From an uncultured delta proteobacterium (lineage in GTDB: Bacteria > Desulfobacterota > Binatia > Binatales > Binataceae), in contig CAVQEQ010000003.1 in NCBI GenBank assembly GCA_963711565.1, positions 224,001-288,000 on the forward strand: 64,000 bases of DNA, written 5' to 3'. A program made the position numbers and the translations under genes. Positions 15,124-32,336 of the stretch are shown in pieces (position 1 is the stretch's first letter; each line of letters begins with the position of its first letter). The notes beneath the pieces were generated by a model, which saw only the letters and a list, made by a program, of their open reading frames with translations, was not told the DNA's origin and did no database searches.

Positions 15124-15237
15124 CCGCTTCCCGTCTTCGGGCAGGGCGTTTGTTCCGTTTGCTTTGTGTCCCAAATGAAAAGAGGGAATTTTTTTTCCGG
15201 CCTCTCAAAAAAGAGTGGAGGCCGGAGAAAAAAATAA
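15124..15237. repeat. dispersed ~110-bp repeat, copy 1 (upstream of ssb)
   Basis: Near-identical to 32228-32336; contains the CCGGCCTCTC-AAAAAA-GAGTGGAGGCCGG hairpin. Confidence 0.9.
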
Positions 15238-15499
15238 GTCGGGGTGGAGCGGCGGTTGGGCGGTTACAATTTTGGATCGCGAAGACGCGGCGTCCTGCGG
15301 ACGCAGGACAGGACTGTTTTACCTTCTTTAATGCGGTTCGCGTCAAGGATTTTTTTACGTTTTGATTTTGCCCTGGCCAAGGACGCGCGACGCGGCAAGC
15401 CACCTCTTTAAATGCGGTTCGCGTCAAGGATTTTTTACGTTTTCATTTTGCCCTCTCCGTTAAAGCGATCGATGATGTCATCCCCATGCGAGCCTCGGC

Positions 15500-15740
15500 A
15501 GGTATCACGCTTCTTTCCGGGATCGGCGCCAGCATGAGCTTGCGTGAGGCGCGCCGTCCCAAATGACTGTCCATTCGAAGAGTGAAGCGGAACCATCTGG
15601 CCATCGTGGTCGCTCGGTCCTGAATTTCGACCGCCTCCACTAGGTAAAAGCCGTTCTCGCTCCAGTCTCTTCCCGTCCTGCCGGACGGCTCTTCGCCGAT
15701 AGTGGCGGCGGAGAAGCTAGATAAATCGTTTACTCCTTAA
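15500..15740 (-). ncRNA. putative bridge RNA/seekRNA
   Basis: Four short segments match the reconstructed target and donor junction halves (15719-24, 15642-49, 15597-603, 15510-16); RNA ends are approximate. Confidence 0.7.
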
Positions 15741-15748
15741 GTGATGGG

Positions 15749-16795
15749 CTAAGCTGCGGCCGCCAGCGCGTCAACGCCAGGCTGATTGAACCGGAACTCG
15801 GTTCCATCGCGCCACATCGCGTGCAGGATTACCGCGAGTCTGCGCGCTACCGCCACGCAGGCTTTTTTCTTCGAGCTGCGTTTAGCAAGGCGCAGGCCCC
15901 AAGCCTTCAGTGCACTCGGCTTGCCACGGGTGAGAAGCACAGTGGCGGCTTCAAAGAGATGCGATCGCAAGAACGCGTCGCCGCACTTGGTGATATGGCC
16001 GTCATAATCCACTTCCCCGGATGCATACTTCCTGGGTGTCAATCCGACCGCTGCGCCCACCGCCTTTGAACGCGCAAACCTTTGCGGCCGATCGATGGAT
16101 GTTTTGTACAAAAGGGCGGTCAAGGGTCCGATCCCTGGAGCCGTCATGAACCGACGGCATACTTCATCATCCCTGACGTGATCCAGAATCATCTTCTCCA
16201 GTTTCATCATCTGGACGATAAGCTCGCGCCGCACGGCCAGCATCGGAAAGATGTAAGCCTGGAGTTCCTGGTCGTCTCCAATCAGCTCGCGGATGCGCGG
16301 TTCATAAGAGCGAATCGTAACCTTGCCGGTCTTCATGCCGAACACTTTGAGCGTTCCCCGGATTTGACTGTCAATGTCGAGCCGCTTGTCCAGAAGGCAG
16401 CGGCGATTGTTGAGCAGAACGCGGAGCTTCTGACTGACGTGGCTTTTCAGGTGGACTTCTCGATACCAGCCAGTGCGCATGATGTGCGCAATGCCTCGGG
16501 CATCGTTGCGGTCAGTCTTGACTTGCTGTGCTTTAAGCGCCGCTTTCGCGTGCCGGGTTTCTATGCAGATGGCCGGATAGTTCAAGGACAAAAGCTCATG
16601 GCACAGCCAGGGCGTAAGACCGCCAGCTTCCAGGCCAACTCTCTCCATGGCGAGTCCGAGCTTGCCGAGCCACTCGTGGATGGCGGCAGGCTCCGTAGGC
16701 ACCTCGCCTTCGCGCACGATGTCGCCGTCCTGGTTCACGACGCACAACGCCGTGCTGTTCAATGACACGTCCAGACCGCAGAAATATTTCTTCAT
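15749..16795 (-). CDS. IS110 family transposase/recombinase
   Basis: DEDD RuvC-like motifs GLDVS, GLEAG, KTDRNDA; PGIG; catalytic-serine motif ASG; AVARRLA. Confidence 0.96.
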   Translation of the reverse strand: MKKYFCGLDVSLNSTALCVVNQDGDIVREGEVPTEPAAIHEWLGKLGLAMERVGLEAGGLTPWLCHELLSLNYPAICIETRHAKAALKAQQVKTDRNDARGIAHIMRTGWYREVHLKSHVSQKLRVLLNNRRCLLDKRLDIDSQIRGTLKVFGMKTGKVTIRSYEPRIRELIGDDQELQAYIFPMLAVRRELIVQMMKLEKMILDHVRDDEVCRRFMTAPGIGPLTALLYKTSIDRPQRFARSKAVGAAVGLTPRKYASGEVDYDGHITKCGDAFLRSHLFEAATVLLTRGKPSALKAWGLRLAKRSSKKKACVAVARRLAVILHAMWRDGTEFRFNQPGVDALAAAA

Positions 16796-17109
16796 AGCTG
16801 TTCTCCGTTGTTGATGGCAGGAAAGGTGAATCTACAGCCGGAACAGATCTTTTTCTATGCAGGGTCAGACTGTTCCGCTGGCTGCCGTCGAGCCGCATTA
16901 CAGTTATCTGGCCAAGGACGCGCGACGCGGCGAGCCACCATAATCCCCGGCGCCGCCATCGGTATAGCCGCGCGTCTGATCAACCAGCGGTCAGGGTGAT
17001 ACGTTGTCGGGCATAGACCCGCGAGAAGCGCTCGAGCGCGCTGAGTGTGTATTGCCGGAGGCGGAGGCAGATAGGCCGTCGCACGTCCCGGCCAAGATGC
17101 TGGTCCTGG

Positions 17110-32227: not shown

Positions 32228-32336
32228 CCGCTTCCCGTCCTCGGGCAGGGCGTTAATTCCGTCTTCGTGTCCCAAATGAAAAGGGGGAATTTTTCCCCGG
32301 CCTCTCAAAAAAGAGTGGAGGCCGGAAAACAAAATA
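32228..32336. repeat. dispersed ~110-bp repeat, copy 2
   Basis: Direct repeat of 15124-15237. Confidence 0.9.

Follow-up and report, generated by a model that had tools for sequence, protein, structure and literature searches.

The window, a stretch of DNA of 64,000 nucleotides, carries on its minus strand at 15323..16909 an IS1111-group element of the IS110 family (1585 bp plus one core, with an AG core at both ends). From comparison with homologous elements we consider it very probable that this intact element encodes a predicted two-loop RNA whose guides follow one another as right-target, left-target, right-donor and left-donor guide (RTG-LTG-RDG-LDG), and that this RNA steers the recombinase which joins the circular form of the element to its target at the AG. 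The element is of a known kind, that of the IS1111-group insertion sequences with a predicted right-end bridge/seek RNA. An initial annotation of the same DNA had proposed an arrangement in which the target guides lie between those of the donor; truly nested guides would have been a new bridge-RNA topology, and such a topology is absent here.

The element, its ends and its target

The element codes for a 348-aa DEDD recombinase (the transposase) in an intact frame (15749..16795, minus strand), recognized by Pfam PF01548 (DEDD, RuvC-like) and PF02371 and by NCBIfam NF033542 (246.6 bits, for a cutoff of 140). Sequence motifs place D9, E56, D95, D98 and S259 in this protein, residues whose catalytic roles we assume to be those of IS621. 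The only relatives with solved structures found by phmmer were IS621 and ISCro4 (PDB 8wt6 and 9t56), with E-values of 1.9e-10 and 8.2e-12, and a tblastn search showed that the transposase is present as a single copy in the assembly (one match in G000). A conserved structured region lies downstream of the transposase gene, as in the IS1111 group, and the features of an IS621-type IS110 element (left-end RNA, left guide first, 2-3-bp repeat) are absent: the RNA lies in the right end, the order is reversed and the repeats are long. The Pfam and NCBIfam matches, the repeats and the structured region agree with the initial annotation, which had described an IS1111-type element with its RNA in the right end, downstream of the transposase.

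The left end (16889..16909, minus strand) consists of the core AG (16909-08), the right-donor arm (16907-01) and a subterminal inverted repeat (16900-889), a geometry which recurs in the homologues with both ends. The outer, true right end (15323..15346, minus strand) presents the -35-like TTGACG (15346-41), a subterminal inverted repeat (15340-29), the left-donor arm and the AG (15324-23). The two inverted repeats (16900-889 versus 15329-40) show 1 mismatch in 11 and lie 7 (left) and 4 (outer right) bases inside the cores, in keeping with the IS1111 group, whose subterminal repeats measure 7-17 bp. The left end is short, with 114 bases versus 426 for the long right end, which carries the RNA region.

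These limits were established through empty sites. When the right junction was compared with 46 genomes of the same genus, six gave a match, and in four of these six (L173=G041, L174=G045, L176=G047 and L177=G003) both flanks are uninterrupted, with a single AG; in the G017 region, the right flank alone was matched. The relatives G018 and G023, flagged as unpublished, support none of the statements made here. Contigs from four of eight runs bridge a 1585-base skip, joining 15322 to 16908 in X1, X2 and X8, where two letters fit either side, and 15318 to 16904 in X6. The empty sites and the 1585-base joints therefore define the element as 15323-16909 and the outer right end as the true one, and they vindicate the reconstruction of target, core and donor junction made in the initial annotation. 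The single AG of the empty sites and the two-letter joints indicate a specific target, with no duplication past the shared core. A further joint in X2, from 15321 to 15372, is most simply explained by an empty target aligned to the inner flank copy described below and was excluded from the evidence.

Inside the outer right end lies a degenerate one, followed by a copy of the left flank (15373..15454 for the whole, minus strand, by blastn): the inner right end (15454-05) matches the outer copy at 94%, and the 32 bp at 15404-373 repeat the left target flank and its core with 97% identity. The inner right end (15454-04) has retained a -35 hexamer and an inverted repeat, together with an equally spaced AG, as one would expect if this copy were the functional one and the outer 80 bp belonged to the flank. 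We regard this as extremely improbable: the empty sites join at 15322/16908, the right-target guide matches DNA past the outer end, and the left-donor guide fits the outer end (AAAGA-AG) but, as the initial annotation had rightly noticed, misfits the inner copy (TAAAG-AG), with its donor arm TAAAG. The outer right end is thus retained in what follows.

The target belongs to a dispersed motif of about 85 bp, with its left part at 16910..16939 (minus strand) and its right part at about 15322-15263. Contigs carry differing DNA beyond 16933-16942, left of the target motif, and a copy 98.9% identical to our element (L081) has the same target motif, with other DNA past ~30 bases of left flank. A search for the perfect 13-base target elsewhere in G000 gave no exact match, one with one mismatch and 46 with two, and a scan of viral contigs for the target motif yielded 120 candidate loci. 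We observed that the dispersed motif is hairpin-rich, with a sharp outer edge near 16939, and that it lies upstream of an ssb gene both in the window and in G045; the gene beside it in G041 is presumably hemB-like, to judge from its sequence. The motif may be the end or the transfer origin of another mobile element. The ssb upstream region recurs at 88% identity (15125-15236 and 32228-32336), and no ssb gene is reported next to the second copy. In the right flank of L015, the element stands just upstream of a gene which we take to be an ArdC-like antirestriction gene, a leading-region context like that of ssb here.

Guides of the predicted RNA

The assignment of the guides rests on covariation between the RNA of homologous elements and their own DNA arms. 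Two scans gave 160 loci, with 59 sequences of at least 49% identity, query included. We kept 31 of them, the query and 30 homologues, for which both ends were found by pattern, and dropped two near-duplicates (L081 and L086), two left-end misfits (L090 and L091) and 24 sequences without an end. To be recognized, the ends had to show an AG core, a word resembling a -35 box and, preceding the right core, A[AG]AG[AG]; a similar left-donor pattern served to cut out the RNA. Some of the kept elements share their targets (L001/L002/L110 and L013/L014) or their target guides (L005/L098). For the guide test, 252 RNA positions were scored against each element's own arm (7 non-core bases), the query being excluded, and the cognate scores were compared with those of 10,000 re-pairings. 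In this blind scan of 252 positions, the maxima for all four arms fell within one base of the guides assigned here, at 15641/15642 (right target), 15597 (left target), 15562 (right donor) and 15510 (left donor).

The initial annotation had read the guides from four words, all of which are present on the minus strand as it had placed them: TTATCT (15724-19), TTTTACCT (15649-42), TGGCCAG (15603-597) and AAAGAAG (15516-10). When the 269-nt region was simulated with a first-order model, their chance frequencies were, in the same order, 0.038, 0.002, 0.013 and 0.020; TTATCT, with the highest frequency, is therefore the weakest of the four. When the non-coding regions of the 30 homologues were compared with their flanks, the right-target, left-target and left-donor positions covaried and the proposed right-donor position at 15724-19 did not.

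The RTG (15642..15650, minus strand), complementary to the core plus the right target, gave cognate scores of 3.70 vs 2.10 of 7 in a fixed register and of 5.57 vs 3.03 with a one-base shift, a difference reached by 0/10,000 permutations. The LTG with the core (15597..15603, minus strand) scored 4.70 of 7, vs 1.88 when permuted (0/10,000), and the core AG is present in 30/30. The RTG precedes the LTG, that is, the match to the top strand of the target lies 5' of the match to the bottom strand, and both covary. The LDG with the core (15510..15516, minus strand) scored 5.27 vs 4.74 of 7 (0/10,000), a count whose independence, like that of the promoter counts given below, is limited because the ends and the LDG were found by constrained patterns. 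Among the homologues, we observed that the register of the RTG relative to the core slides by 0, 1 or 2 bases and that its core-pairing CT is often substituted, the left guides keeping their AG in 30/30.

The word at 15719..15724 (minus strand), taken in the initial annotation for the right-donor guide, would place the target guides inside the donor guides, and the query does hold there a 6-mer which includes the core, with 7/9 matches and the chance frequency given above. We grant this nested arrangement almost no probability, because the homologues do not follow it. In the 28 homologues that cover the site, the cognate score fell below the permuted one (1.79 vs 1.94 of 7, with 9693/10,000 permutations as high); the element's own 6-mer was found in 0/30 homologues, the query alone holding such a 6-mer; and in an alignment-free search from the stop codon to 15700, the best 9-base match was 5.23 vs 5.25 for shuffled sequences, with 0/30 reaching 7. 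The region is variable and almost absent in L105 and L016, and the match at 15724-19 is likely a chance 6-mer outside the conserved RNA. Moreover, a better and covarying site exists at 15570-61.

This site (15561..15570, minus strand), missed in the initial annotation and located between the LTG and the LDG, is the RDG which the near and the far sets of homologues support by covariation. It tops the 252 positions for the right-donor arm, with 4.53 of 7 at 15562 (background 1.69, sd 0.57). With a one-base shift it scored 5.20 vs 4.58 of 7 (0/10,000), and the permutation figures of both donor guides overstate the case, since donor arms vary little and the relatives are not independent; the independent donor-guide changes amount to a handful. 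At exactly 15561 and with no shift, the homologues scored 1.77 vs 1.61 (669/10,000), a weak value due to the fact that in most of them the donor arm is one base shorter and the guide one base over. In 17 bases around 15570-61, the mean best 9-base match was 6.83 vs 4.32 for shuffled sequences, and 22/30 homologues reached 7/9.

Changes in the RDG are coupled to those of the donor arm in L105 (7/7, with a different arm), L017 (7/7) and L104. In the transposase tree, in which two rows are partial proteins, the one-base-longer donor arm together with the shifted RDG occurs in two distinct clades: the query, L112 and L006 form one (97/99), and L098 lies inside another (100/99). The pairing of the RDG is imperfect in most homologues, its commonest form having two mismatches beside the core; in L093 and L089 the donor arm is altered and the guide unaltered, and L011, L015 and L107 fit in part. 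The sisters L005 and L098, which have the same target guides, differ in donor arm length, with a matching change in the RDG, and the right flank of L098 fits its own guide worse than that of L005 does.

A far set of 109 loci with less than 53% identity (41-52%), often with an AC core, gave 76 usable loci and 42 distinct pairs. For these 42 pairs the RDG scored 4.10 vs 3.76 of 6 (0/10,000), with ends anchored by motifs and some mis-picked hairpins left in, which lowered the score; a pattern-free repeat search for the ends was noisy in this far group. The LDG is identical to the donor arm plus core in 58/58 loci, with six variants, under constrained patterns, and the left-target 6-mer lies within 60 bases 5' of the RDG in 34/70. 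The tandem guide order thus reaches well beyond the near clade. The predicted order is RTG-LTG-RDG-LDG, a target loop and then a donor loop, each with its right guide before its left guide; because the RDG lies at 15570-61, the target guides are not flanked on both sides by donor guides, and the arrangement is not nested. Three guides of the initial annotation are thus confirmed and one is reassigned.

The guides of the donor loop match both donor arms and covary, more weakly than those of the target loop. It may be argued that the target loop (~15672-15577) alone guides, the protein reading the ends via the subterminal repeats and the donor segments being structural or vestigial. The RDG indeed tolerates mismatches, and the donor changes of L093 and L089 are uncompensated. 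Furthermore, the donor loop may be non-essential because a short seekRNA of 70-100 nt sufficed for ISEc11, the role of the long form being left open in the parts of that report considered here (PMC11187229). We nevertheless hold such a division of labor to be very unlikely: the LDG follows the donor arm in 30/30 near and 58/58 far loci, including the change of the core from AG to AC, the RDG follows large donor changes (L105, L017 and the far set), and the donor loop repeats the build of the target loop. A predicted RNA in which both loops guide is therefore the reading that we keep.

Predicted structure and proposed mechanism

The predicted core of this bridge or long seekRNA (15495..15690, minus strand) was drawn from the alignment of 29 elements and from a covarying structure. 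In the RNAalifold model of the 29 elements, the target arm is made of outer stems, an internal loop with the RTG and the LTG, and an inner hairpin; the donor hairpin lies 3' of the target arm, flanked by the RDG and the LDG, with double changes in 16/22 pairs. A 37-pair model is 89% paired, with changes on both sides in 27 pairs and 0/500 shuffles as high, and it is favored over slid controls because it was drawn from the query. Both loops are built alike: the right guide is followed by a hairpin with a near-invariant closing G-C, then by a G and by a left guide that ends in the core. The candidate stem closing the donor loop (15574-72/15509-07) is weak, being 81% paired with no double changes, and a single-sequence fold buries part of the guides. 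A search of Rfam over 15200-17000 returned no family and one chance match inside the gene (E 0.43).

A long-range closing stem is also predicted (15497..15682, minus strand), pairing 15682-77 with 15502-497; a local hairpin at 15687-74 shares bases with the 5' strand of this stem. The stem is kept in 20/20 elements with the common sequence, 5/6 of its pairs show double changes, and the 11 variants are still complementary (5.5 vs 3.6 bp, 0/10,000). The local hairpin, 95% paired and almost invariant in sequence, competes with it. If the long-range stem forms, the model may bring both arms into one multi-loop, the sole sense in which there would be enclosure. One could also imagine that 15687-74 is a two-state switch between local hairpin and multi-loop closure, which would decide between a long two-loop RNA and a short seekRNA and so tip the balance between insertion and excision. 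We consider such a switch doubtful; if it were true, a clade with a covarying reversed donor loop would allow a direct test of the purpose of the long seekRNA of IS1111.

By analogy with IS621 and ISEc11, the element would circularize, the circle junction would create a sigma-70-type promoter (TTGACG-17-GATAAC), and a single transcript would hold both transposase and RNA. The RNA would then bind the recombinase, each loop would open one DNA duplex and pair with both of its strands, and strand exchange would take place at the AG core. The junction sequence is as the initial annotation had described it, and the -10 hexamer of the query, GATAAC, is without the final T. The spacing between -35 and -10 is 15-18 in 30/31 predicted junctions, for which the search pattern already included the -35. 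The 8 contig sets, which drop rare forms and are no evidence of absence, showed no circle joint, and a scan of the linear sequence for promoters and terminators gave nothing, as expected if the promoter forms only in the circle. The RNA runs X19 and X20 gave three 151-base contigs at 15717-16217, none across the guides, and are uninformative on expression.

Relation to known systems and internal flank copies

In the parts of their article considered here, Siddiquee et al. (2024) described for IS1111 an RNA located downstream and a reversed order of the target matches, and left open the role of the long RNA (PMC11187229). Our element resembles their ISEc11, ISKpn4, ISPa11 and ISPst6 by the non-coding region downstream of tnp, the subterminal inverted repeats, the 7-bp extension of the left end, the predicted junction promoter and the right match located 5' of the left one (PMC11187229); its target differs. 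In those parts, the donor guides of the ISEc11 group are unassigned (PMC11187229), whereas here covariation supports a donor loop whose guides show this reversal as well. Durrant et al. (2024), in the sections considered, predicted right-end bridge RNAs in 93% of IS1111s and 'potential' donor-binding bases in a multi-loop for many IS1111 elements, and presented predicted bridge RNAs of ISAzs32, ISCARN28 and ISPa11, with all four ISAzs32 guides drawn (PMC11208160). Many motifs of our recombinase are common with the ISAzs32/ISMex9/ISMno22/ISMpo4 protein cluster of this article, by eye only (PMC11208160). Our analysis supports a working donor loop in IS1111, a question left open in PMC11187229 and given as 'potential' in PMC11208160, as far as those parts go. 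No text on the order of the IS1111 donor guides was found in the portion of the literature searched, which included a 2026 review and a 2026 article on directionality, and figures may already show RTG-LTG-RDG-LDG.

The element also shares with IS621 and ISCro4 a DEDD recombinase and two guide loops (predicted here), each pairing with both strands and sharing a 2-nt core, according to the parts considered of PMC11208160. In IS621 and ISCro4, as far as these sources describe them, the RNA precedes the gene, a CT serves as the core and the subterminal repeats have 2-3 bp, whereas here the RNA lies downstream, the core is AG and the repeats have about 12 bp. Their left guide comes before the right one, according to parts of PMC11187229, and here the right comes before the left. 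The analysis provides the full annotation of a predicted IS1111-type bridge RNA with its AG core, four mapped guides and 30 natural examples of retargeting, and the element lends itself readily to a reprogramming assay.

The inner copies deserve a last comment. The same inner-copy arrangement is found in L081, and in 5/31 elements a diverged duplicate of the element's own flank is present between the RNA and the right repeat; it corresponds to the left target flank in three of them (the query, L006 and L107) and to the right one in the other two (L112 and L002). The flank copies of the query and L006 end exactly at the core, which generates an intact target-like site inside the element. Such an internal flank copy may be left over from half-match or tandem events, or may act as a decoy. 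Hu et al. (2026) described expanded IS110 loci with non-coding tandem repeats (10.64898/2026.08.14.744561) and Xie et al. (2026) half-match recombination (10.64898/2026.08.31.748434), and our inner right end with its flank copy resembles the partial duplications and the one-sided donor matches at borders given in the parts of these two reports considered here. Unlike the cases in those parts, the internal piece here reproduces, up to the core, the flank of the element's own target. Handshake guides were looked for by eye, with no clear pattern. Also by eye, the RNA of L003 is cut just past the LDG by an apparent IS110-type gene, and members of the repeat family seen in the internal flank copies lie inside L090, L092 and L112.
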